Below, in pieces: positions 24,235 through 39,205 of a stretch of DNA of 64,000 bases; positions within the stretch are counted from its first letter, which is position 1, and each line of letters opens with the position of its first letter. The notes below the pieces were generated by a model, which ran no database searches, was not told where the DNA came from, and saw only the letters and a list, made by a program, of their open reading frames with translations. Origin of the DNA: a virus; IMG/VR virus record IMGVR_UViG_3300008262_000047; one strand, written 5' to 3'. Position numbers and translations under genes: made by a program.

Positions 24235-24694
24235 TTACAACAAGTATAATGAGGGAACGTATTATAAGATTGTGAAATTGAAAACAGGAGAAACTATACT
24301 CTGTACCATGAATCATGATGTTCGGTCGTTGGCATCTGAAACACATTTACAAATGAATGTTCCTGTACAGGTTATCCCTCACCAAGAAACACGACGCAAT
24401 GGTCAAGTGATAGGCGAAAGTTTTGTTTTGCGTCCATGGATTGGATTAAGTGATAGTGATGAATTTACAATTAGTACTGACATTGTATTAACCATAGGAA
24501 GTTTAAAGAAAGAGGTACGTCAACAATATGTCAACTATATTGAACATACCATTGAAACACAAAAGCGCCAAGAAGAACAAATAGAACGTGAAGAAGCAGC
24601 AGAAAATTTATTACGTGAAATTACACCCGGTGAGTTATATTTTGTTGATGAACCTTTGAATATGGAAAATAACCATGACGAAAACCAAGAGTAA
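24227..24694 (+). CDS. conserved hypothetical protein (Sm-like fold suspected)
   Basis: IVKLKTGETILC motif; usual position between uvsW and gp55. Confidence 0.65.
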   Translation: MHSYNKYNEGTYYKIVKLKTGETILCTMNHDVRSLASETHLQMNVPVQVIPHQETRRNGQVIGESFVLRPWIGLSDSDEFTISTDIVLTIGSLKKEVRQQYVNYIEHTIETQKRQEEQIEREEAAENLLREITPGELYFVDEPLNMENNHDENQE

Positions 24695-25286
24695 AACAAA
24701 CAATCATTACATAGATAATAAAAAGTTTCTACAAGCCTTAATAGATTATAAAGTAGAGGTACGTGAAGCAGAACAGAACAAAGAGGAACGTCCACAAGTT
24801 CCAGAATACATAGGCGACTGCTTCATTAAAATTGCCAATCATTTAGCCTATAAAAATAATTTCATTAATTACAGTTTCCGTGAGGATATGATTTTAGATG
24901 CCATTGAAAATTGTCTCACATATATGGACAACTTCGATCCCGCGAAATCAAGCAATCCCTTTGCCTACTTCACACAAATTACCTATTATGCCTTTGTGCG
25001 AAGAATTCAAAAAGAGAAGAAGCATCTACAAACCAAATATAAGTATATTGCTTCGTTAGATGTGGATAACATCATTCGTCAAGCTCATGACGAAGGCACA
25101 CATACAAATGAGTTCATTCGGTACTTGCAAAAGCAAGCTGATGCCGCCAACCAAGAATTAAGTGCCGACAAAGAAACGAAAAAGATTACACGTAAACCAA
25201 AATATCTACAGGCACTTGATGACGATGTGGTGATTATTGAATCTGAGTATATTGATGTGGAAGAAGTGGATGAATATGATGAGTGA
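24675..25286 (+). CDS. gp55: late-transcription sigma factor gp55
   Basis: HYIDNKKFL, NFINYS.REDMI.DAIENC, NPFAYFTQI.YYAF.RRIQKEK. Confidence 0.95.
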   Translation: MTKTKSKTNNHYIDNKKFLQALIDYKVEVREAEQNKEERPQVPEYIGDCFIKIANHLAYKNNFINYSFREDMILDAIENCLTYMDNFDPAKSSNPFAYFTQITYYAFVRRIQKEKKHLQTKYKYIASLDVDNIIRQAHDEGTHTNEFIRYLQKQADAANQELSADKETKKITRKPKYLQALDDDVVIIESEYIDVEEVDEYDE

Positions 25287-25289
25287 AAC

Positions 25290-25318
25290 TTGACAAATAC
25301 CTAAATAGTCTGTAGATT
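25290..25318 (+). promoter_or_regulatory. sigma70-type promoter of the deazaguanine operon
   Basis: TTGACA-17 bp-TAGATT upstream of queE. Confidence 0.65.
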
Positions 25319-25347
25319 GTTATATAACTTTGTGATTGGAGTGTGAT

Positions 25348-26253
25348 ATGCGTATTCGTTACTCAGAAATTTTTTATTCATTTCAAGGTGAAGCTGAATT
25401 GGCAGGAACGCCTGCCGTTTGGTTACGTTTCTTTGGTTGTAATTTAAATTGTAGTGGATTCGGACAAAAGAATCCCACAGACCCATCTACATATGAATTA
25501 CCATTCGAAACATTCGATGTGGATTCTGTGAAGCATGTCAATGACCTTCCCGTGTGGAAGTTTGGGTGTGACTCATCCTATTCTTGGTCACAACGTTTCA
25601 AGCATCTAGCGCACGATGCATCTCCCGAAGAAATTGCTGACCGTTTAGTTGAAGCCAACAAGAGCGAGCATAACCCACAAGGATTGTTCATTCATCCTGT
25701 AACACAACAACCCATCATGCTATGCTTCACGGGCGGCGAACCCATGATGCAACAAAAGGCAATGATGGAAATTCTTCGTGTGTTGCGTGACAGAAATAAT
25801 GCACCACAACTTGTCACGGTGGAAACAAATGCCACACGCCCCTTGTCAGAAGAATTAAGAAAATTCATGTCATTTGAATTCCCATTCATGGGAAATGGTA
25901 AGGCGCGTTGGCATTGGTCAATGAGTCCAAAATTGTTCACGGTATCAGGTGAAGATAATGTGGTGAGTGCAGAACACATTCATGAATATTCACTTGCCAA
26001 TGCTACATCCATTTTGAAATTTGTGTGTAACGGGACAAAAGAAAATTGGGATGAACTTGACAATCACCTAAATAGAATTAGATTACTATGTGGGAGATAC
26101 ATGCCAGACGTATGGGTGATGCCTGTCGGCGCCACAAAGGATGCTCAAGAGGATCCGTATATTGGTGATTTGTGTATCGAAGCAATGAATCGTGGTTATA
26201 AAGTTGCCACACGAAATCATTGTTATGTCTTTGGCAACGTCATTGGGAGATAA
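25348..26253 (+). CDS. queE: 7-carboxy-7-deazaguanine synthase QueE (radical SAM)
   Basis: SEIFYSFQGE, .RF.GCNL.C...CDS.Y, FTGGEP, ETNAT, SPKL. Confidence 0.9.
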   Translation: MRIRYSEIFYSFQGEAELAGTPAVWLRFFGCNLNCSGFGQKNPTDPSTYELPFETFDVDSVKHVNDLPVWKFGCDSSYSWSQRFKHLAHDASPEEIADRLVEANKSEHNPQGLFIHPVTQQPIMLCFTGGEPMMQQKAMMEILRVLRDRNNAPQLVTVETNATRPLSEELRKFMSFEFPFMGNGKARWHWSMSPKLFTVSGEDNVVSAEHIHEYSLANATSILKFVCNGTKENWDELDNHLNRIRLLCGRYMPDVWVMPVGATKDAQEDPYIGDLCIEAMNRGYKVATRNHCYVFGNVIGR

Positions 26254-26254
26254 T

Positions 26255-26956
26255 ATGAAGTCACAACATCGTTTTAACGCATCAGCTATTCGTTCTGCCA
26301 TGGGCAAGACTGATCCTGAATTGGGATTACAGGTACATAAGCATCTTGTTGCTCAGGGTGTAGAGACACCTTTCATGCAGACGGAAGAATATAGTGACAA
26401 GAAGATTAAGAAGATTGAAAAACATTTCACTGAAATCATGACAACTCTAGGTATGGATTTGACTGATGACAGTCTCCAAGATAGTCCTAAGCGTGTTGCC
26501 AAGATGTTTGTGAATGAACTATTTTGGGGATTAGATTATGCAGCATTTCCGAAGTGTACTGCCATTGAGAATAAGATGGGGTATGATGAGATGGTTCTTG
26601 AAAAGAACATCACGGTGACTTCGGCATGTGAACATCACTTTGTCACTATTTCAGGTGTGGCACATGTTGCCTACATCCCGAAAAATAAGGTGTTGGGGTT
26701 GAGCAAGTTGAATCGTGTTGTTGAATATTTCTCACGCCGTCCTCAGGTTCAAGAGCGCCTTGCAGAACAAATTTATCATGCTCTGTCATTCATCCTTGAC
26801 ACGCCTGATGTAGCGGTTGTTATTGACGCCGAACATTTCTGTGTAAAGGCACGAGGTGTTGAGGATCCACATTCCAATACAATCACATCGAAGTTGGGTG
26901 GCGGATTCAAGGAGAATCCTGCCCTTCGTTCAGAATTCATGCATCTCATCAAGTAA
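26255..26956 (+). CDS. folE: GTP cyclohydrolase I
   Basis: CEHHF, GLSKLNR, RRPQVQERL, H.CV..RGV. Confidence 0.95.
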   Translation: MKSQHRFNASAIRSAMGKTDPELGLQVHKHLVAQGVETPFMQTEEYSDKKIKKIEKHFTEIMTTLGMDLTDDSLQDSPKRVAKMFVNELFWGLDYAAFPKCTAIENKMGYDEMVLEKNITVTSACEHHFVTISGVAHVAYIPKNKVLGLSKLNRVVEYFSRRPQVQERLAEQIYHALSFILDTPDVAVVIDAEHFCVKARGVEDPHSNTITSKLGGGFKENPALRSEFMHLIK

Positions 26957-26960
26957 TATC

Positions 26961-27476
26961 ATGTCAAGTGATATCAATGTAATGATTGACTTGGAAACCA
27001 TGAGTACCGAGTCAAACGCAGCAATCGCCTCTATTGGTGCGGTAAAATTTTCTATCGAAGCAGGTGTGATAGATACATTTTACTGCACGGTAGATGTGGC
27101 TGACTGTAAATTACAGGGATTACACATTTCTGCTGATACTGTGAAATGGTGGAGTAAGCAACCCAAGGAAGTATTAGAAATGCTTCGTGAAAATAATGTA
27201 TCTCTGCGCGAAGCTCTTACAAAGTTTTCTCAATGGTATGGAACAGTACAATATCCTACATGGGGTTGTGGTTCTGATTTTGATAATGTCATTATGGAAA
27301 ATGCCTATAAGGCAGTAAGTATGGTACGTCCTTGGAACGCCTGGAGAAACAGGTGCTATCGCACAATACGCGAAGTAATTAAATTACCAGAAGCTGAACG
27401 AACAGGCACATATCACAATGCACTTGATGATGCGTTACATCAGACACATCATCTACTTAAAATCTTTGGGAGCTAA
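26961..27476 (+). CDS. DEDDh 3'-5' exonuclease (Rv2179c/ExoVIII-like)
   Basis: MIDLET, GSDFD, H.ALDDA motifs. Confidence 0.85.
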   Translation: MSSDINVMIDLETMSTESNAAIASIGAVKFSIEAGVIDTFYCTVDVADCKLQGLHISADTVKWWSKQPKEVLEMLRENNVSLREALTKFSQWYGTVQYPTWGCGSDFDNVIMENAYKAVSMVRPWNAWRNRCYRTIREVIKLPEAERTGTYHNALDDALHQTHHLLKIFGS

Positions 27477-27478
27477 TA

Positions 27479-28738
27479 ATGTTTGAATATGTTGCTTCTG
27501 GGTTATCCTTTCTGCGTTGCAACTTTAAGGATACACATACAGGATATCTATTGGGTGAATTGAATAAAATGTGGGGACATATTCGTGGTAAATATGACCA
27601 CGAATTTTCATTCCTGTATAACGCCTATATTGAAAAGCATTTCGGTGAGGTGTTTTATGGTGCCTATCGTGGTAAAGGTATTAATCAGGTGTATGCCGAC
27701 TCGGGCGGTCTACAAATTGTCACACAAGGATTGACCATCACGCCGGCATTAAAACAGAAGGTGTACGAGAGTCAAGCCATGTACTCTGATTGCGCCATGA
27801 GTTTTGATGAAATTCCTGTGAGCATTATTGGCACAAAGGCGGTACGTTCAGATATTAACAGTAAATATTTTGATAGAAATAAATTTGAATGGTGTGCGCG
27901 TGAATCAGGCAGAAATGTGAAGAACCAAATTGACACATTCATCGCCATGAAATCTGATGCCAAGCCCATGTTCATTGTACAAGGCGGTGACCTTGACACA
28001 TACATCAAATGGTGTGAGTTGGCACTGGAAGAAATTCCTAAGGAATATCATGAACGCATTGGCGGTGTCGCCATGGGTTCAGGTGGTATCGGTAACGGGA
28101 TGTTTGAAGATTGTAAGCGAGCATTTTATTACACACAAACACCCTTGTTTGAAATGAACAATCATCTCCATTTGTTAGGTATTGGTGCAGTATCACGTAT
28201 GGTACCTACATTGGCAATGATTGAAAGTGGCTTATACACAAACAAACATATTAGTTATGATAGTACGACCCATACATCGGGTGTACAAATGGGAAGATAC
28301 TATGGTCCTGATTTCTCTTGGATTACTCCCGGCAAACACTTCATCAATGAAAATGGTCCTCAGTATTCCATTATCAATGCCGACATCAAGAAAAATGTTC
28401 CGTTCTATGATGTAACAGATGAAGTATTCCATGAGGTCATGAACATCAGTGTTCGAAAGTATCAGGCAAAAACAAATGATCCTAATCCGCCCATTCTTGC
28501 ATTTAACGCATACTTCACTTCATCAGTCATTAACTTTCTACGTCACTTAGATACCATGAGAAAGGATTTTTCACAGATTCATACATTGATGAGTGACGAT
28601 GAATACAATGCCATGATGGCGTTTAGTCGAGTTAAAAACAGAGTGGATTTTGAAAAGTGGGAAAATGAAATGGGACGATATCTCCCAAGTCAAGCTGTTC
28701 GTGATGGCATACCTGCAACATTACCTGAGGACTTTTAA
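27479..28738 (+). CDS. dpdA: DNA 7-deazaguanine transglycosylase (TGT fold, DpdA-like)
   Basis: ADSGGLQ, FDEIP, IVQG, GVAMG, HLHLLG, SYDSTT TGT-type motifs; lies in a que/fol cluster. Confidence 0.75.
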   Translation: MFEYVASGLSFLRCNFKDTHTGYLLGELNKMWGHIRGKYDHEFSFLYNAYIEKHFGEVFYGAYRGKGINQVYADSGGLQIVTQGLTITPALKQKVYESQAMYSDCAMSFDEIPVSIIGTKAVRSDINSKYFDRNKFEWCARESGRNVKNQIDTFIAMKSDAKPMFIVQGGDLDTYIKWCELALEEIPKEYHERIGGVAMGSGGIGNGMFEDCKRAFYYTQTPLFEMNNHLHLLGIGAVSRMVPTLAMIESGLYTNKHISYDSTTHTSGVQMGRYYGPDFSWITPGKHFINENGPQYSIINADIKKNVPFYDVTDEVFHEVMNISVRKYQAKTNDPNPPILAFNAYFTSSVINFLRHLDTMRKDFSQIHTLMSDDEYNAMMAFSRVKNRVDFEKWENEMGRYLPSQAVRDGIPATLPEDF

Positions 28739-28740
28739 TC

Positions 28741-29112
28741 ATGATAAAGCGTTACATTGAAGTGACATTTCAGAAAGAAGGTATTCACAAATATCCCGCA
28801 GCATTGACTGACCCGAAATTGAAAGATGTAGAATTTTTAGGATATCCTCATAGACACATGTTTCATTTCCGTGTTCGTGTATCGGTGACACATAATGACC
28901 GAGACATTGAATTCATCTTATTCAAGCGTGAACTTGAACATCTATATCAAGGCACGTTGCATGTTGATTATAAGAGCTGTGAAATGTTGGCAGAAGATTT
29001 AATAGAGTACATTACTAATGTTTATCCGGGCAGAGAAGTTGAAGTAGGTGTGAGTGAAGATGGTGAGAACGGTGCAATCATTCAATATCAACCAATGGGG
29101 AGTTTGACATGA
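28741..29112 (+). CDS. dpdL: QueD-like T-fold protein, DpdL-type (predicted CDG decarboxylase)
   Basis: LGYPHRHMF (LxxxHRHxF instead of QueD CxxxHGH), SCEMLA, EDGENGA; a true QueD is also present. Confidence 0.65.
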   Translation: MIKRYIEVTFQKEGIHKYPAALTDPKLKDVEFLGYPHRHMFHFRVRVSVTHNDRDIEFILFKRELEHLYQGTLHVDYKSCEMLAEDLIEYITNVYPGREVEVGVSEDGENGAIIQYQPMGSLT

Positions 29113-30272
29113 AGATTTTCTATATGGGATTGGAATCATATGAATCACGATATACATTGCAACTAACTAAGTGGGCAACTACCACTATGGATCGTCGTGG
29201 TGTTGAATATGTGATTGTTCCCGGCAAGACCATTGATAACAGTCAGGCAATTTCTGTGGGACAGGTTCTTGATGCACATGGAAGAAGTTATTTCGCCATG
29301 TCACAAATGATGAATCTTGTGCAGATGATGAAAGATGGGACAGTCACCGGTGAAGATGCCATCTTTTTTGAAGATATGTTTCAACCCGGCATTGAATCGC
29401 TTCCTTACATCATGAATCAAATCCCTGAAAAGGATCGACCGAAGGTGTGGGTACGTTGTCTTGCACAAAGCATTGATCCTGATGACTTTGTTCATGTGTG
29501 GGGTATGGCACCTTGGATGAGTAAGTATGAACACATGGTGAATGATTTTGTTACGGGTGTTCTTGCGTCAAATGAAGAAATGGTGGCACATATGAAGATT
29601 GCAGGTTGGACAGCACCTCTCTACAACATTTCAGGCTTGACGTTTGACCGTGATGAGGTGAGAAGTCGAGTATCGCATATTCCAGAATTCTCATCTAGAA
29701 AGATGCGTGTTGTATTTGCTGCTCGGTTTGACCAAGAAAAGCAACCCAACTTCTTCATGGATATTGCTGAACAAGTTGCAGAAACATATAACATTGAATT
29801 TGCCATAGTATCGGGCGGTCCATTACGGAGTAACAATCCGGTATATTTGGAACGTGCTCGTAAATTAGAAAAGAGTGGTCTTTTAAAGATTTATGATAAT
29901 CTTTCTAAGAATGAGTATTATGAGATTGTTGCCAATAGTCGTGTATTGTTTAATTGTGCATTACAAGATTGGGTAAGTAACACGGTGTCTGAGGCAGATG
30001 CACTTGAATGTAATGTGTTGTATCCTGCCTATCGGTCATTCCCAGAAACGTTTGCCAATGATGCTGAACGTTTATATGTACCTTGGTCACAACAAGATGC
30101 CATTAACAAGTTGTTCAGGCACTTGAATGAACCTCATAGAAACATGGGAAAGATTTCAGCTTGGACATCACAGACAATGGATAGAATTCTAGATGTGATG
30201 TTGGGTCAAGGTGAAGCATGGCGCCGGGATGATAATCGTTATCGTGACTACACTTCTACAAACAAATACTGA
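29109..30272 (+). CDS. GT-B (GT4-like) glycosyltransferase
   Basis: ARFDQEKQP and QDWVSNTVSEA (acid-X7-E) donor-binding motifs; ATGA overlap with the dpdL-like gene. Confidence 0.75.
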   Translation: MKIFYMGLESYESRYTLQLTKWATTTMDRRGVEYVIVPGKTIDNSQAISVGQVLDAHGRSYFAMSQMMNLVQMMKDGTVTGEDAIFFEDMFQPGIESLPYIMNQIPEKDRPKVWVRCLAQSIDPDDFVHVWGMAPWMSKYEHMVNDFVTGVLASNEEMVAHMKIAGWTAPLYNISGLTFDRDEVRSRVSHIPEFSSRKMRVVFAARFDQEKQPNFFMDIAEQVAETYNIEFAIVSGGPLRSNNPVYLERARKLEKSGLLKIYDNLSKNEYYEIVANSRVLFNCALQDWVSNTVSEADALECNVLYPAYRSFPETFANDAERLYVPWSQQDAINKLFRHLNEPHRNMGKISAWTSQTMDRILDVMLGQGEAWRRDDNRYRDYTSTNKY

Positions 30273-30282
30273 GGAGATGACA

Positions 30283-30726
30283 ATGAAATTCTATTCAACG
30301 AAAACATTTGGTAATGAGCGTGGTTTGAGCTGTGCATTTCGTCAATGGCGAGCAAAATCACATTGCAATCAAATTCATGGTTATAGTTTAGGATTTCGTT
30401 TCATCTTTGAGGCAGATGTCCTAGATGAAAGAAACTGGGTATATGACTTTGGTGATACCAAGTGGATTAAGGAATACTTAGATGTTGCCTTTGACCACAC
30501 AACGGCAGTTGCCAAGGATGATCCTTTGCTTCCCTTGTTCAAACAAATGGATAAGGAAGGCGGATGCACATTGCGTATTTTTGATAGTGTTGGATGTGAA
30601 GCATTTGCTCATATGGTATATGTTGACATTGCCCCCGGTGTTGTACACAAGACGAACGGGCGAGTTCGCCTTAAGAGTGTGGAAGTATTTGAACATGGGA
30701 GCAACTCTGCCCTGTACGAGGGATAA
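30283..30726 (+). CDS. queD: 6-carboxy-5,6,7,8-tetrahydropterin synthase QueD
   Basis: HCNQIHGY, WVYDFG, FDH, CE, V.EH..N.A. Confidence 0.88.
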   Translation: MKFYSTKTFGNERGLSCAFRQWRAKSHCNQIHGYSLGFRFIFEADVLDERNWVYDFGDTKWIKEYLDVAFDHTTAVAKDDPLLPLFKQMDKEGGCTLRIFDSVGCEAFAHMVYVDIAPGVVHKTNGRVRLKSVEVFEHGSNSALYEG

Positions 30727-31770
30727 ATGAAAGTTGCCATAATCACAGATACACATTTTGGTGCGCGAAATGATTCACAGCATTTCGACGCCTATTTCCG
30801 AAAATTTTATGATGAAGTATTTTTCCCATATCTAGATGAAACGGGAATCAAAACTCTTTTGCATTTAGGGGATGTATTCGATAGAAGAAAGTACATCAAC
30901 TTCAATACACTACGTTCATGTAAGGAATATTTTTTCGAGCAACTAAAGATACGTGGTATTGACATGAAGGTGATTCCTGGCAATCATGATACATATTATA
31001 AGAATACAAATGAAGTGAATAGTTTAGATTTATTGTTACGGGAATATCATAACATTGAAATCATTGAAGACCCAACCATCACACAATTAGATGGTCGCAC
31101 AGTATCTTTTATTCCTTGGATGTGTGCAGAGAACTATGATGCCTGTATGAAAGTCATTCAACAACCTGCTGAGTTATGTTTTGGGCATTTTGAAATTGCC
31201 GGATTTGATATGTTTCGTGGGGCAAAGAATGATGGAGGTATGGATAGACAGGTTCTGAAAAACTATTCAATGGTACTCACAGGACATTTCCATCATCGTA
31301 GCACTGATGACAATGTATATTACTTAGGAAGTCCCTATGGGTTCACATGGAGTGACTATGATGATAAACGAGGATTCCATGTATTGGATTTAGATACATT
31401 GGACCTACAATTAATAGAAAATCCATTTGAAATTTTTCATAAGATTTATTATGATGACCGCGAGAAAACCATTGATGCATCCAAGTATGCAAAGGCATGT
31501 GTGAAATTGATTGTTGTCCATAAAAATGATTATCAAAAATTTGACAAACTGCTTGATGCGTTGTATATTAATGAAGTGATTGAATTAACTATCCACGAAG
31601 ATTTTTCAGAATTTGAGTCTGAGGCATTGGATAGTGAGACGGTGAATATTGAAGATACAATGACACTTCTTTCTGAATATGTTGATTCCGTTGAATCAGC
31701 CAAAGACAAGAATAAATTGAAAACGTTGCTGAAAACCTTATACGTTGAGGCACAGAATCTTGAACTATGA
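30727..31770 (+). CDS. gp47: recombination endonuclease subunit gp47 (Mre11-like)
   Basis: DTHFG, GDVFD.R, GNHD, GHFH. Confidence 0.93.
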   Translation: MKVAIITDTHFGARNDSQHFDAYFRKFYDEVFFPYLDETGIKTLLHLGDVFDRRKYINFNTLRSCKEYFFEQLKIRGIDMKVIPGNHDTYYKNTNEVNSLDLLLREYHNIEIIEDPTITQLDGRTVSFIPWMCAENYDACMKVIQQPAELCFGHFEIAGFDMFRGAKNDGGMDRQVLKNYSMVLTGHFHHRSTDDNVYYLGSPYGFTWSDYDDKRGFHVLDLDTLDLQLIENPFEIFHKIYYDDREKTIDASKYAKACVKLIVVHKNDYQKFDKLLDALYINEVIELTIHEDFSEFESEALDSETVNIEDTMTLLSEYVDSVESAKDKNKLKTLLKTLYVEAQNLEL

Positions 31771-33488: not shown

Positions 33489-34025
33489 ATGACTTTGAAA
33501 CTTGAAGATTTGCAATTAATTCATTTTGCTGACCCACGTATGACCACAAAGCCCCCTGAGTTTGATTTCCAGAAGGATGGCGATATTGCAGAGGAGTTGG
33601 CAACGATACTCCATAAGCGAATGTTACAGTTGGGAGGATTAGGATTATCAGCCAATCAAGTGGGCTTACCTTATCGTGTGTTTGTTTTTGGTAATGCCGA
33701 ACAGCGATATGCCTTATTCAATCCCATTGTGATTGGTGTAAGTAGAGAACAGACCACAATGGAAGAAGGATGTCTGTCATTCCCAGGATTCATGCTGACA
33801 TTACAGCGCCCATCTGAAGTTACCGTGGAATATCAAGATGTGTCTGGTACAACTCAACGCATGTCATTTAAGAATATTGCTGCCCGTGTGGTGTTACATG
33901 AATATGACCACATGGAAGGATTAAACTTCACACATCATGCATCAAACTTTAAGTTGCGTTGGGAACTAAATAAATTAAAGAAAAAGAACAAGAAACTTCA
34001 ACGCAGGATGAAACATGGCAAGTAA
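33489..34025 (+). CDS. def: peptide deformylase
   Basis: GLGLSANQVG, EGCLS, HEYDH. Confidence 0.92.
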   Translation: MTLKLEDLQLIHFADPRMTTKPPEFDFQKDGDIAEELATILHKRMLQLGGLGLSANQVGLPYRVFVFGNAEQRYALFNPIVIGVSREQTTMEEGCLSFPGFMLTLQRPSEVTVEYQDVSGTTQRMSFKNIAARVVLHEYDHMEGLNFTHHASNFKLRWELNKLKKKNKKLQRRMKHGK

Positions 34026-34398
34026 TGATTTTGATTTTGGCTTTACATTCACAGACGATGAATTTTCTTCATCCTCCACATCGTCAGGCACACCTCAACC
34101 TGCCATTGTTGACCCAGAATTTAAAGATGAACTTTTTCTAAAGATTCAAAAATTAGAGCAACAAATTGAAGCTCTAACTGAAGGTGATACAAATGATTTG
34201 ATTGAACAGCATAAACAATTACTAACAAAAGAAATACGTGGCAAGTTACAAGAAGTTGAACAATTGATCCTCCCGCTTCTTTACAATCTGCAAAAGAATC
34301 CTGACAAGGAATATATTCATTGGCCGAATCGTAAAGACATTATTCAAAAACAAATTGAACGTATTCAACAGGTGACGAGACATTATGGACAAGACTGA
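34015..34398 (+). CDS. conserved T4-like hypothetical protein
   Basis: FDFGF, ILPLL.NL.KNPDKEYI.WPNR. Confidence 0.75.
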   Translation: MASNDFDFGFTFTDDEFSSSSTSSGTPQPAIVDPEFKDELFLKIQKLEQQIEALTEGDTNDLIEQHKQLLTKEIRGKLQEVEQLILPLLYNLQKNPDKEYIHWPNRKDIIQKQIERIQQVTRHYGQD

Positions 34399-34999
34399 AA
34401 TTATGGCAGGTAATAACATTACCGCTTTTACCGACCGCCCTATCTCAAAGGTGCACAAATTCTATTTGTCGGGAGATATTAAATCACCCGCTGAATATGT
34501 ACAATGGTTTGAAACCATTAGAAATTCAAGTGAGAACGATGTGATTGTAGTTCACATTAATAGTTATGGTGGCGACTTATTTACGGCAATTCAATTTATG
34601 CGTGTATTTGCTGAATCAAAGGCAAATGTTGTGGCATCAGTTGAAGGTGCATGTATGAGTGCTGCTACAATCATTTTCCTTTCTGCCAAGCATTGGGAGA
34701 TTAGTAATCATTCCATGTTCATGTTTCATAACTATACCAGCGCAACCATTGGCAAGGGCGGCGAAATGTATGACAACATAATTCATGAACGCAAGTGGAG
34801 TGAAAAACTTTGGCAGGATATCTACAGTGGGTTTTTAACAGCAAATGAAATTAAATCAATTCTTGATAGCAAAGATATTTGGATGTCAGGTGAAGAGGTT
34901 TCGAAGCGGTTACAAGAAAAATTTGCACCGAAATCTCTGAGAACGCCTAAGAAAACCCCTAAAAAAGTCACGAAAACAGTAAAAACCAAGAAGAAATAA
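34385..34999 (+). CDS. ClpP-like serine protease
   Basis: INSYGG, ACMSAA (Ser), MFH (His), DIWMS. Confidence 0.8.
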   Translation: MDKTEIMAGNNITAFTDRPISKVHKFYLSGDIKSPAEYVQWFETIRNSSENDVIVVHINSYGGDLFTAIQFMRVFAESKANVVASVEGACMSAATIIFLSAKHWEISNHSMFMFHNYTSATIGKGGEMYDNIIHERKWSEKLWQDIYSGFLTANEIKSILDSKDIWMSGEEVSKRLQEKFAPKSLRTPKKTPKKVTKTVKTKKK

Positions 35000-35003
35000 G
35001 TCT

Positions 35004-35068
35004 CGTAAGTGCTTATTTTTCAATAACTTACGTCAGGGCTTGACAAACGGCTTATCGGGTGCTAGATT
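35004..35068 (+). promoter_or_regulatory. early promoter with upstream quasi-palindromic element (inverted copy)
   Basis: CGTAAGT-GCTTATTTTTCAATA-ACTTACG at 35004-35032, then TTGACA(35040)-17 bp-TAGATT with extended TG. Confidence 0.8.
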
Positions 35069-35111
35069 ACTAGTATCCGATAAGCCTTCGTGACCTTCAA
35101 AGAGGTATACT

Positions 35112-37373
35112 ATGTCGAACGTCCTAGACAACACAAAGTCAACCCTAGGCAAGCTCCTAGCGGCAGAAAATATTCGCATCGAGCATCGGCAGGTTCGAGG
35201 CCCCAGCTTCGATGTTAAGAACCGAGTTCTGGTTCTCCCCATCTGGAAGGAAATTGACGCTGACCTGTATGACCTCATGATTGGTCATGAGGTTGGTCAT
35301 GCTCTCTACACACCTACCGATGGTTGGATGGATCGGGTACAGGAGCACGGAAAGAATTTCAAGGGTATTCTTAATGTTGTTGAGGATGCTCGCATTGAAA
35401 AGCTCATGAAGCGTAAGTTTCCGGGTCTGCGGAAGCCCATGTATAATGGATACACCCAGCTTGTGGAGCGCGGGTTCTTCGGTGTCGGTCTGGATGATAT
35501 GAAGCATCTCCCGTTTGCTGACCGTGTGAACGTGCATTTCAAGCTCGGTCCTCGCGCAGGTATTACATTTACGGATGCTGAGCAAAATCTTGTTTCTCGT
35601 ATTGAGAATGCCGAGACATGGGATGAGGTGATGTCCTTGTCTGAGGAGCTGTTTGCGGCAGCGGATGGGGAGTTCAATGATATTTCCGATGACATTTTCG
35701 ACAACCTCGATGCTCTGTCTGACGCCATTGACAACATGGATGAAGGCGGCGAGGGCGAGGGCACGGGCGAAGGGTATGGTGAATATTCCAGCGATACTCC
35801 AGGTAGTGGCAAGACGCTGCAGGATGTTATAGACCAGCTTCGCGCCGCAGGTAAGGATAATGCTGCCGACAAGCTGGAACGCATGTCCAAGAGCAATGCC
35901 TATCGTAGGATGATGACGGAATGGGCTGAGAATCAGGAAATGGGATCCATCACTGACGAGGCTCTTGAGGCTAATCAGGAAAAGCTCATTGATGAGGATG
36001 CCTATCCTAATACATATATTTTCTGGCCTGAATTGAATCACAAGGATTATGTAATCCCTGCCCGTGTGGTGCATCAGCAGATGCGGTCTGAATACAAGCC
36101 GGAATATTTGGCGAAGGAGAATGACCTATACAACACCTTCATGAGCACCAATCGTAATTACATTAAGTATTTGGTTAAGGAGTTTGAGCTAAAGCGAAAT
36201 GCCAAGCAGTTCGCCAAGGCGCGTGTTAGCAAGACGGGTAAGCTGAACACGGAAAAACTTTGGCGCTATCAGATTTCAGAGGATCTGTTCCTACAGTCAA
36301 CCGAAATTCCCAATGGGAAGAATCATGGAATGCTTATGGTTATTGATTTGTCAAGTTCCATGACTGAAAACATGGCAGGTACCATTGAGCAAATCATTAA
36401 TCTTTCCATGTTTTGCCGAAAGGTGAATATCCCCTTCGATGTGTATGGGTTCATTGACACCTCAGCTGAAAAGGATTTCATGTTGTCGGGTATTACACGC
36501 TCTGAGAGCAAGCATCCAATTTTCGGTACGATGTATCGCACATGTCCTAACGACAATCGTGACCGATCCATTCAAATTAACAATGTTGATTTTCGCTTGA
36601 AGCAGTTGCTCCATTATAACATGGGTGCTGCAGAATTTAACGTGTCGGTGAAAAATCTTCTTCTCTTGGCTAACGCCTATAAGCGTTCGGCAAACTATTA
36701 CTATTATTCTTCAAGCTCCCACCATGTCCCCCCTTCGATGCATTTGGGTGGGACTCCATTGAACGACGCTGTTTTGGTTCTTCGCTCGCTTGCTGAGGAA
36801 TTCAAGAAAAACACCCGTGTGGAAATTCTAAACACGGTACTGCTTACTGACGGTGAAGCATCATATGGATTGGCGTTCAAGGATGGTGAGCAGATGGGTA
36901 ACGCCGGTGGAATGTACCGGGGTCGGATTGTGATTGAGGATCGCAAGACAAAGAAGCAGGTCATGGTGTCGAAGTGTGGTAACATCACGTTGGCACTTCT
37001 TGAAATGTATCGGCAGCATACAGGTTCGCGGGTGGTGGGTTTCTATCTGATGTCAGGTCGCAACTATCGCAGTCAGGTGATGGGAACCTTGACGCGAAAT
37101 AATCCTGAATTCAATCAGGAAGTGTTCGATAAGCAGTATGCCGATGAATTCGCAAAGTACAAGTATTTCGGTATGAAGCTCGCCGGGTATGATGTATACT
37201 ACATGGTGCCAGGTGATGAACTAGAAGTTGAAGATGTGGATATGGATACAGTCCTCAAGAGCTACAAGGATGGCTCAAAGAAGGGGTCTCTGCTCAAGGC
37301 ATTTAAGAAAATGCAAAATACGAAAATGATTTCGCGTGTATTCTTAAATAGGTTCATTGAACAGATGGCGTAA
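35112..37373 (+). CDS. VWA/MIDAS-domain protein with HExxH peptidase-like N-terminus (CobT-like partner of the AAA ATPase)
   Basis: HEVGH, NVVEDARIE, VIDLSSSM, GGTPL, LTDGE. Confidence 0.82.
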   Translation: MSNVLDNTKSTLGKLLAAENIRIEHRQVRGPSFDVKNRVLVLPIWKEIDADLYDLMIGHEVGHALYTPTDGWMDRVQEHGKNFKGILNVVEDARIEKLMKRKFPGLRKPMYNGYTQLVERGFFGVGLDDMKHLPFADRVNVHFKLGPRAGITFTDAEQNLVSRIENAETWDEVMSLSEELFAAADGEFNDISDDIFDNLDALSDAIDNMDEGGEGEGTGEGYGEYSSDTPGSGKTLQDVIDQLRAAGKDNAADKLERMSKSNAYRRMMTEWAENQEMGSITDEALEANQEKLIDEDAYPNTYIFWPELNHKDYVIPARVVHQQMRSEYKPEYLAKENDLYNTFMSTNRNYIKYLVKEFELKRNAKQFAKARVSKTGKLNTEKLWRYQISEDLFLQSTEIPNGKNHGMLMVIDLSSSMTENMAGTIEQIINLSMFCRKVNIPFDVYGFIDTSAEKDFMLSGITRSESKHPIFGTMYRTCPNDNRDRSIQINNVDFRLKQLLHYNMGAAEFNVSVKNLLLLANAYKRSANYYYYSSSSHHVPPSMHLGGTPLNDAVLVLRSLAEEFKKNTRVEILNTVLLTDGEASYGLAFKDGEQMGNAGGMYRGRIVIEDRKTKKQVMVSKCGNITLALLEMYRQHTGSRVVGFYLMSGRNYRSQVMGTLTRNNPEFNQEVFDKQYADEFAKYKYFGMKLAGYDVYYMVPGDELEVEDVDMDTVLKSYKDGSKKGSLLKAFKKMQNTKMISRVFLNRFIEQMA

Positions 37374-37380
37374 TACTGTG

Positions 37381-37452
37381 AAGCCCTACGTAAGTTGTTG
37401 AAAAATAAGCACTTACGTAGGGCTTGACAGACGAGAGAAATGGTGTTATATT
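37381..37452 (+). promoter_or_regulatory. early promoter overlapped by a perfect 15-bp inverted repeat
   Basis: AAGCCCTACGTAAGT-15 bp-ACTTACGTAGGGCTT; TTGACA(37424)-17 bp-TATATT. Confidence 0.85.
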
Positions 37453-37504
37453 TATAGTATAATCTGAGATGTACACTTCATCATTCAAGCACACAGGAGT
37501 AAAC

Positions 37505-38583
37505 ATGACCCGACTCATTGATGCCCTTCGCGCTACTGGTAAGACCGAGTTTTCTCGTCCTGATGTTCTCACGGTCGCCCGTGAGGTGGGTGAAAGTCCC
37601 AATGTGTTTTTGAATGACCCAGCATACAAGGTTCGGCGCGGCGTCTATGCCATCACGCCTACAAGCACTTCAAATTATACGCCTATTCAGGCAGAGGCAC
37701 CTATTGTGAGTAATGCATCTACAATGTATCTATCGCAGCCGAAGCTCAAGATTGAGGTGGACAACCTTGTACCAAACAAGGATAGCACCTATGTACCTTT
37801 CGGGTTTCATAAGGATCTCATGACCATCCTCGCCTCCAAGCAATTCTATCCCGTGTTCATTACAGGATTGTCTGGTAATGGTAAGACCACCATGGTGTTG
37901 AAACTGACGAGGATGACCTCATTGGAGGCAATACTCTTGTGGATGGCAACGTGGTGTATCGTGAAGGTCCCGTGACCATTGGGATGAAGCGCGGCGCTGT
38001 GGTCATTCTGGACGAGAGCGACCGCGGCAGTAACAAGCTGATGTGCCTACAGGCAATCCTTGAAGGAAAGCCGTATTTCAATAAAAAGACGGGCGAGATT
38101 ATTCACCCTGCCCCAGGTTTCAATATCGTGGCAACGGGTAACACCAAGGGTCAGGGTTCTGACGATGGTAAGTACATGTCCGCACAGATTCTGGACGATG
38201 CACTCCTCGAGCGTTTCGCTGTGACCATCGAACAGGAGTATCCTAACTCCCGGGTGGAGAAGAAGATTATCATGAAGAAGATGGAGCGTGTGGAAAAGGT
38301 GGATGAGGATTTTGCCGACAAGCTGGTGGCATGGGCAGAAATCATTCGTAAGACGTTCATGGAGGGTGCTGTGGATGAACTCATCTCCACGCGGCGTCTG
38401 GAGCATATCGTGAACGCCTACGCTATGTTTGGTGACCGTCTCAAGGCAATCAATCTCTGTATTGCTCGATTCAATTCTGAGACCAAGGCGAGCTTTCTCG
38501 ACCTCTATACAAAGGTGGATGCAGGTGTCACGATGACCCCAGCCGAACAGGCTGAGGGGTATCCCGATGACATTCCCTTCTAA
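37505..38583 (+). pseudogene. MoxR/CobS-like AAA+ ATPase, frameshifted near 37895 (deletion or assembly error)
   Basis: Frame 1 gives GLSGNGKTTM; another frame continues VETDEDDLIGG...ILDESD...ATGNTKG...LERF...ISTRRL; the usual linker after Walker A is missing. Confidence 0.8.
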
Positions 38584-38593
38584 TAGGTGATAT

Positions 38594-39205
38594 ATGGAAA
38601 ACCCAATGGTGAATTATTCTAAAATCATCGCTGAAACAAATAGTAAAATGTATAATGTTCGGGATGAATATAAGAATAATAGTGTTGAAGAAAACATTGC
38701 CATTTGCAATAAGGAACACTTGAAGTTCTCGGTGGGGTGTATTAACATTACAGGAGAACTCAACATTGGGATGATGATTCGGTCAGCGTGTCTATTGGGT
38801 GCAGAGAATTTCTATATCTTTGGGCGTAATAAGTTTGACAGACGCAGCACAGTTGGTGCTGAGAATTATATTAACATCGTTCAATATAGTTATGACGACC
38901 CGATACACGCCGACGCCGAAATCAATGAACGATTGGAATATATGTTGAAGTGGAACACTGTGGTGTTGTGTGAACAGGGCGGCGATGAAATTGGATCACG
39001 AAAAATGGCGTTGAAATATTCGGAAGAAATAATAAATCCGTTGTTCGTATTCGGTTCAGAGAGTCATGGTATTCCTCCGCTAATAACTACTAATGAACAC
39101 TTTTATAAAGTGAGTATTCCTCAACGTGGAGTCCTTCGTTCGTTTAACGTGAGTGCTGCCATGAATATCATTGTGTGGGATTACATCAAGGAGATGCATC
39201 TATGA
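38594..39205 (+). CDS. SpoU/TrmH-family RNA methyltransferase
   Basis: NIG..IRSA..LG, FGSE..GI, IPQ.G..RSFNVS.A. Confidence 0.85.
   Translation: MENPMVNYSKIIAETNSKMYNVRDEYKNNSVEENIAICNKEHLKFSVGCINITGELNIGMMIRSACLLGAENFYIFGRNKFDRRSTVGAENYINIVQYSYDDPIHADAEINERLEYMLKWNTVVLCEQGGDEIGSRKMALKYSEEIINPLFVFGSESHGIPPLITTNEHFYKVSIPQRGVLRSFNVSAAMNIIVWDYIKEMHL

Follow-up and report, generated by a model that had tools for sequence, protein, structure and literature searches.

A putative QueC-independent 7-deazaguanine DNA-modification module with a linked glycosyltransferase in a viral genome fragment carrying T4-type genes

The DNA of Cellulophaga phage phiST contains 2'-deoxy-7-deazaguanosine (dDG) and is listed as completely modified, and this phage encodes FolE, QueD, QueE, the QueD-like protein DpdL and the DNA transglycosylase DpdA3, with no QueC (PMC10516641). 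The QueC-less core FolE/QueD/QueE/DpdL/DpdA is already known from phiST and from Acidovorax phage ACP17 (Cui et al. 2023). Here we analyse a cluster of seven genes in a stretch of viral DNA of 64,000 nucleotides (IMG/VR record IMGVR_UViG_3300008262_000047; the whole stretch is called the window below), in which the same core is found together with genes for a GT4-type glycosyltransferase (GT) and an exonuclease (Table 1). The cluster is probably a QueC-independent 7-deazaguanine DNA-modification module of four steps in a T4-like phage, with the GT as one of the pathway components.

Like the phiST dDG system (Cui, Hutinet et al. 2023, PMC10516641), the window combines a QueC-less route through 7-carboxy-7-deazaguanine (CDG) with a DpdL carrying the HRHxF motif, a DNA transglycosylase and a QueD with the CxxxHGY motif. 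Unlike phiST, it has a DpdA2 of 419 amino acids without detectable similarity to the DpdA3 of phiST (259 amino acids), and phiST has no GT, its DpdL being adjoined instead by MazG and a small P-loop ATPase. ACP17, which is also T4-like, resembles the window in having QueD, FolE, a DpdA2-type protein, GT, DpdL and QueE and no QueC match genome-wide at the Pfam cut-off, but its GT lies between DpdA and DpdL and is 23% identical to that of the window (29% for DpdA). The ACP17 GT does not appear in the main text of PMC10516641, where the word 'glycosyltransferase' has 0 occurrences. Vibrio phage nt-1 (Hutinet et al. 2019, PMC6884629), another T4-like phage, carries a transglycosylase of the same family beside FolE; it differs from the window by having QueC and ArcS2, by making dPreQ0 and dG+, and by lacking both DpdL and GT.

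Two bacterial pathways are also comparable. In that of huimycin, the GT4-type enzyme HuiG has been proposed to glycosylate the 2-amino group (N2) of free 7-deazaguanine (PMC7439116). By this precedent a GT4-type enzyme may serve a 7-deazaguanine base at that position, and the tubercidin pathway provides a QueC-less route from CDG via a phosphoribosyltransferase and a decarboxylase. Both differ from the window in being secondary-metabolite clusters without a DNA transglycosylase.

Linkage of the glycosyltransferase to DpdL

Homologues of the window GT were found in 17 phage records, and all 17 are among the 28 records positive for DpdL. The GT-positive records belong to six lineages, the window counted, and in every one of the six GT is located at most about 3 kb from dpdL or directly beside the DpdA-type gene. 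The order of the genes varies, being DpdA-DpdL-GT in the window and BUCT-ZZ01, DpdA-GT-DpdL in ACP17, GT-DpdA-DpdL in X1 and X-GT-DpdL in PA5oct, while in BCSR5 GT is beside a protein with a DSGG motif and DpdL is found about 3 kb off. The GT neighbours in PA5oct (540 amino acids) and BCSR5 (446 amino acids) keep this motif and are weak matches to DpdA2. Furthermore, a GT only 25% identical to that of the window still has dpdL, folE, queE and queD within 6 kb.

The GT profile, which matched in 5 of 5 positive controls, gave no match in phiST, RHph_I1_18, Bakedbeans and Ahp1, all of them DpdL phages, nor in nt-1, which has DpdA2 and QueC. The transglycosylase was identified in two of these four DpdL phages, as a DpdA3 in phiST and as a DpdA3-like protein in Ahp1. 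In Stenotrophomonas phage Moby QueC adjoins the DpdA2, and neither the Stenotrophomonas phages nor pf16 appeared among the GT or DpdL matches. From this pattern of presence and absence, GT tracks the combination of DpdL with a long DpdA2-like protein and is absent with the short DpdA3-like protein of the phiST type. The first-pass annotation of this DNA had suggested that the additional enzymes of the cluster elaborate the base further; for GT, a pathway role is backed by this linkage to DpdL and DpdA across phages, and the suggestion probably does not extend to the exonuclease, as described below. We consider it fairly likely that GT belongs to the pathway.

In the IMG/VR collection dpdL was near GT in 77 of 80 loci, which form one clade and are not independent of each other. 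When searched with the DpdA2 hidden Markov model (HMM), 79 of these 80 loci showed no DpdA at 10 kb or less from GT. A 40%-identical DpdA2-like protein (P0385) has as its longest contig one of 27,328 bp, as for locus L086, and because of this agreement in size the dpdA of that clade may lie farther from GT. Distant representatives of the GT family, used to scan viral contigs, retrieved one locus and none.

In BUCT-ZZ01 a protein of 447 amino acids encoded just 5' of DpdA (L001:4650-5993) is also matched by the GT profile, though weakly (E 2e-5, in the C-terminal domain), so that this phage may carry two glycosyltransferases in the cluster. A large IMG/VR clade has, between dpdL and GT, a cupin with a mannose-6-phosphate isomerase C-terminal domain (L029:9173-9760), which hints at a mannose-type donor there. 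The DpdA2 cluster of Moby contains a gene annotated as inositol-3-phosphate synthase between FolE and QueC (L103:3508-4758).

PDB sequence searches with GT and with DpdL gave chance matches only, and so did those with DpdA and with its profile of 64 sequences; for this reason the folds of GT and DpdA were taken from AlphaFold2 models. The GT model (pLDDT 97) has the two Rossmann domains and the conserved donor-phosphate and acidic residues of a GT4-type GT-B enzyme. Its structural matches are sucrose-phosphate synthase, BshA and MshA, with Z 26-27 and a root-mean-square deviation of 3.0-3.6 over 320-338 residues, and tetrahydrobiopterin glucosyltransferases with Z 24. Across 110 relatives R206 and K211 never vary and D287 and E295 hardly do, and we take these residues to correspond to the donor-binding and EX7E-type positions of GT4 enzymes. 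The Pfam model Glycos_transf_1 scored 23.5 bits, slightly below its cut-off of 26.4. The family is mostly viral and falls into 783 clusters when grouped at 50% identity, or about 8000 when grouped at 90%. Two BFVD matches stand far above the rest, the ACP17 GT and an entry of 370 amino acids, the same length as the BCSR5 GT. No paper that could be searched describes this GT or reports a glycosylated deazaguanine in DNA.

The alpha- and beta-glucosyltransferases of T4 are also GT-B enzymes of a T4-like phage, and like them the window GT would decorate a modified base after replication. Moreover, the module is located between gp55 and gp47, presumably the position where T4 carries alpha-gt. A homology with the T4 alpha-GT in particular obtained no specific support from the structural matches: this enzyme is not among the 50 PDB matches listed for GT, and a cyanophage protein annotated 'DNA alpha-GT' comes 11th in BFVD with TM 0.55, the level of generic glycosyltransferases. 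Unlike the T4 enzymes, which act on DNA with 5-hydroxymethylcytosine, the window GT is an acidic protein closest to GT4 enzymes of small molecules, and has no hydroxymethyl acceptor.

The transglycosylase, DpdL and the absence of QueC

No Pfam or NCBIfam family, the Pfam model of tRNA-guanine transglycosylases (TGT) included, matched the window DpdA at E <= 0.01. The best Foldseek PDB matches of its AlphaFold2 model (pLDDT 93.5) are the Z. mobilis TGT (E 5e-8) and 7ui4, which is the DNA preQ0 insertase DpdA. By tblastn, relatives were found in BUCT-ZZ01 (41% identity), the Xanthomonas phages X1 and BUDD, Pseudomonas phage pf16, Stenotrophomonas phages, ACP17 and 48 large Vibrio phages. The match to nt-1 YP_008125322, from which Hutinet et al. 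originally defined DpdA2 (PMC6884629), had an E value of 2.1e-40 with 35-37% identity over the catalytic barrel. A DpdA2 HMM made from the nt-1, D490, ACP17 and X1 proteins, with the window left out, recognised the window DpdA at E 2.6e-89, compared with 0.4 for the DpdA1 of 9g and 0.12 for the DpdA3 of phiST. D74-S-G-G, F109-D110, G169 and D261 do not vary among 64 relatives, and Q168 hardly does; D74 (in DSGG), D110 (in FDE) and D261 presumably correspond to the catalytic Asp residues of TGT. The protein has therefore both the similarity to the founding nt-1 member and the TGT-type TIM barrel with conserved acidic residues that characterise DpdA2. Three other assignments were rejected: DpdA3, with a blastp E value of 5.7 to phiST CGPG_00065 besides the poor HMM value above; DpdA1, with E 2.2 to the 9g protein and again a poor HMM value; and tRNA TGT, for which both the Pfam match and the CxCxxC...H zinc site are lacking, the window DpdA having five scattered Cys residues, none of them in its C-terminal part.

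The first-pass annotation had made its reading depend on where this protein falls among DpdA1, DpdA2, DpdA3 and the tRNA TGTs, and the placement in DpdA2, rather than with the tRNA enzymes, supports an action on DNA. In E. coli the nt-1 DpdA2 equips plasmid DNA with preQ0 (PMC10516641, Table 3), and DpdA2 base exchange in DNA has been shown only for the nt-1 and VH7D proteins (PMC10516641).

One residue of the putative base pocket differs among DpdA2 proteins in a way that may be related to the substrate. Residue 108 (window 27800-27802), which precedes FDE, is Ser in the five DpdA2 of DpdL/GT phages compared and Cys in the four from phages with QueC or with an unknown pathway (nt-1, D490, Moby and pf16). 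It is the sole clean difference in the pocket and may be a marker of specificity, with too few sequences (5 versus 4) to judge.

DpdL has 123 amino acids and carries LGYPHRHMF at residues 33-41, which fits the pattern LxxxHRHxF instead of the CxxxHGH of QueD; L33, H37, H39 and F41 do not vary among 11 homologues. Its identity is 38% with the phiST DpdL CGPG_00067 (E 1e-13 to 1e-17) and 54% with that of ACP17. Comparison with phage QueD by hhalign gave a probability of 74.5% (E 2.7e-5 over 68 columns), a moderate support for their relationship. In the 64-kb window and in five complete relatives DpdL occurs together with FolE, QueD, QueE and DpdA and no QueC above the Pfam cut-off.

The absence of QueC and ArcS from the window, already claimed in the first-pass annotation, held in two kinds of search. 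Neither QueC, ArcS nor Gat-QueC had a tblastn match in the 64 kb, and none of them turned up in Pfam scans of 30 of the 78 window open reading frames (ORFs), 20 of which lie at 33-63 kb and 10 in the cluster or near it. QueA and QueG were not seen in the scanned parts either, and QueF had been noted as absent in the first-pass annotation, although none of these three had a dedicated query; no phosphoribosyltransferase was detected in the 64-kb window. Outside the window, the complete genomes of BUCT-ZZ01, ACP17, PA5oct, X1 and BCSR5 had no above-cut-off match to the Pfam QueC model, the only match being a sub-threshold one in X1; the same search gave a match in all 14 control genomes, above cut-off in 12.

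Some relatives show variations around DpdL. In Vibrio phage Bakedbeans it forms the C-terminal third of gp176, a protein of 383 amino acids (L012:5212-6363), the N-terminal 260 residues of which matched nothing compared. A phosphoribosyltransferase of family PF00156 is found inside the clusters of BUCT-ZZ01 (L001:2733-3194), PA5oct (MK797984.1 226978-227229) and an IMG/VR clade (L029:11956-12498). By analogy with TubE of tubercidin, this enzyme could make a nucleotide of CDG or of 7-deazaguanine (DG), or recycle the released guanine.

Organization of the cluster and neighbouring genes

The window contains 78 ORFs of at least 70 amino acids, nearly all on the + strand. T4-type genes are present for the late sigma factor gp55, gp47/gp46 (SbcCD-like), the clamp loader gp44, UvsX, the helicase gp41, the clamp gp45 and a primase, and the DNA polymerase shares about 50% identity with its counterparts in marine Synechococcus myophages. 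When the cluster was compared with phage records by megablast, it had zero matches and no close cultured relative, and IMG/VR contigs exist with a DpdA 87-94% identical to that of the window. A GT with 96% identity is found on a contig of 134.6 kb. The module is placed between gp55 (24675-25286) and gp47 (30727-31770), and its GC fraction, 0.41, equals that of the window overall.

Table 1. Features of the putative 7-deazaguanine cluster, in window coordinates
Feature	Product or description	Position	Strand	Support
Promoter	Putative sigma70-type promoter, TTGACA-17-TAGATT	25290..25318	+	In the 61-nt gp55-queE gap; 10/12 consensus matches
queE	7-carboxy-7-deazaguanine synthase (radical SAM)	25348..26253	+	PHROG 2076, E 9e-48, full length
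folE	GTP cyclohydrolase I	26255..26956	+	NCBIfam equivalog NF006824, 317 bits (cut-off 202); Pfam PF01227, E 1.5e-62
Exonuclease	DEDDh 3'-5' exonuclease, Rv2179c-like	26961..27476	+	Pfam PF16473, E 2.7e-43; PHROG 255
dpdA	DpdA2-family guanine transglycosylase	27479..28738	+	TGT fold with a helical C-terminal domain and without Zn-Cys cluster
dpdL	QueD-like T-fold protein, proposed CDG decarboxylase	28741..29112	+	PHROG 17812, E 6e-38; tblastn to phiST and ACP17 DpdL
GT	GT4-type (retaining) GT-B glycosyltransferase	29109..30272	+	Virus-dominated subfamily; AlphaFold2 model and structural matches
queD	6-carboxytetrahydropterin synthase	30283..30726	+	Pfam PTPS, 61 bits (cut-off 22.4); PHROG 2389, E 1e-36

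What the first-pass annotation described as seven tightly packed genes behind a single sigma70 promoter is indeed found as seven co-oriented genes (25348-30726) with intergenic spacings of -4 to +10 nt. The enzymes it named (FolE, QueD, QueE, a TGT-fold protein, a T-fold protein with LxxxHRHxF and a GT-B enzyme) were all recovered by Pfam, NCBIfam and PHROG matches, motifs and AlphaFold2 models. The putative promoter occupies the sole intergenic gap of the cluster, and both hexamers are kept in three related contigs (L003, L004 and L005) in which the flanking bases vary. The call relies on this position and conservation; promoter-like sites as such are not enriched in the window over shuffled sequence. 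No terminator was found 3' of queD, so transcription probably continues into gp47 and gp46.

Among the CDG-making enzymes, QueE has the radical-SAM Cys triad (C31, C35 and C74, invariant among 9 phage sequences) together with a full-length family match. Its N-terminal signature matches NCBIfam models below their cut-offs, the equivalogs matching only the N-terminus. The QueD is a phage variant with CxxxHGY in place of CxxxHGH, of which C28, H32, G33 and Y34 are invariant in 7 phage sequences, that of phiST among them. A pathway with such a QueD works in phiST, whose DNA contains dDG (PMC10516641). At residues 31-74 of QueE (window 25438-25566) an insert of about 38 residues interrupts the iron-sulfur motif CX3C...C after its second Cys; the insert recurs in several unrelated large phages, being found in PA5oct, Ahp1, X1, BUCT-ZZ01 and an IMG/VR clade, and is missing in the QueE of phiST, ACP17 and 9g.

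The exonuclease has a homologue adjoining GT in BUCT-ZZ01 (39.5% identity) and none in the clusters of ACP17, X1, PA5oct and BCSR5. Because only the window and BUCT-ZZ01 have it next to the cluster, this enzyme probably represents an ordinary T4-type nuclease, a bystander without role in the pathway. A DEDDh exonuclease also lies beside the phiST cluster, and it was rejected as a homologue of that in the window.

Downstream of gp46 (33489-39205) the window encodes a peptide deformylase, a ClpP-like protein, a protein of 753 amino acids (PHROG 459, 'peptidase'), a CobS-like AAA protein and a SpoU-family methylase. The order gp47-gp46-deformylase recurs in Rhizobium phage RHph_I1_18, where QueD and DpdL come next.

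Possible products of the module

The module would work in four steps. FolE, QueD and QueE, recognised here by homology, would turn GTP into CDG by the known chemistry of their families. Without QueC, CDG would not be converted to preQ0, and DpdL would decarboxylate it to DG, as proposed in the literature. The DpdA2-family enzyme would then swap guanine in the replicated phage DNA for the deazaguanine, as suggested by the action of nt-1 DpdA2 with preQ0. Finally, to judge from its linkage, GT would use a nucleoside-diphosphate sugar of the host to glycosylate the deazaguanine, either as a free base before insertion or already in DNA. A host donor is proposed because Pfam scans of window ORFs revealed no sugar-nucleotide genes in the window. 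DNA so modified would withstand host nucleases that read G; the DNA of PA5oct withstands enzymes with G in their sites (PMC12191111). We have good confidence that the module serves DNA modification, and we infer its anti-restriction role, how far guanine is replaced and which base takes its place.

A sugar on the final DNA base, that is, a glycosylated 7-deazaguanine in the phages with a DpdA2-type protein, DpdL and GT, is a more tentative proposal, possible but on the doubtful side. It would be, to our knowledge, the first sugar-bearing purine in any natural DNA. When DpdA and DpdL from ACP17 or phiST were co-expressed in E. coli no dDG was obtained, and the authors suggested that further enzyme(s) may be needed (PMC10516641). 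If the final base is glycosylated, GT as the missing factor would explain the failure with the ACP17 pair.

Several points weigh against a DNA-modification pathway that includes GT. 7-Deazaguanine has no hydroxyl for a classical O-glycosyltransfer, and the chemistry of the DNA is known for none of the GT-positive phages. GT is acidic (pI 5.4, with 4.9 for its N-terminal acceptor domain), which disfavours DNA as acceptor, and the 80 IMG/VR loci amount to a single clade. In published tests the modification reached with DpdA2 enzymes was low, the decarboxylase activity of DpdL is a proposal (PMC10516641), and the negative result for QueC covers the 64-kb window and not the rest of the phage genome or a QueC of the host.

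The alternative that survives best, which we still judge unlikely, is that the phage makes plain dDG as in phiST and that GT acts elsewhere, on an envelope glycan, a protein or another DNA base, its linkage being due to a shared early expression. The phiST phage attains dDG without GT, GT4 enzymes act mostly on small molecules, lipids and glycans, and the acidity of GT in a window without sugar-nucleotide genes would fit this explanation. It leaves aside that all 17 GT-positive records have DpdL and that GT stays close to dpdL or a DpdA-type gene in six lineages despite the reshuffled orders, and also the absence of the GT profile from DpdL phages with a phiST-type DpdA3-like protein and from nt-1. 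In addition, no gene of the dCMP/dUMP hydroxymethylase type was seen in the scanned window parts.

It is quite improbable that FolE, QueD, QueE, DpdL and GT make instead a soluble glycosylated deazapurine or pterin comparable to huimycin or biopterin glucoside. HuiG provides a precedent (PMC7439116) and the tetrahydrobiopterin glucosyltransferases are among the structural matches of GT, but a DpdA2-family gene is part of the same tight operon in the window, BUCT-ZZ01, ACP17 and X1, and PA5oct DNA behaves as modified at G. Actually, such a product would be compatible with a DNA base if the free base were glycosylated and then inserted. We give hardly any credit to a TGT-fold protein that modifies tRNA, in the manner of queuosine or archaeosine, to tune translation in infection, because although by fold alone it is equally close to tRNA TGT and bacterial DpdA, it has no Pfam TGT match, no Cys cluster for the TGT zinc and a place in the DpdA2 family, QueC and ArcS were not seen in the scanned window parts (nor QueA and QueG, for which no dedicated query was made), and DG, the proposed product of DpdL, is not a known tRNA base.

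Of all branches of 7-deazaguanine DNA modification in phages, the QueC-less route through DpdL is understood least, with the activity of DpdL unproven and a failed reconstitution in E. coli. Since GT accompanies DpdL wherever a long transglycosylase resembling DpdA2 is present, it is a concrete candidate for the missing component, and a new base is predicted. If GT acts on DNA, the large size of its metagenomic family indicates that the modification would be common in environmental T4-like phages. If true, this would bear on the evasion of restriction and CRISPR, on type IV restriction and glycosylase defences, and on the detection of modified DNA by sequencing.

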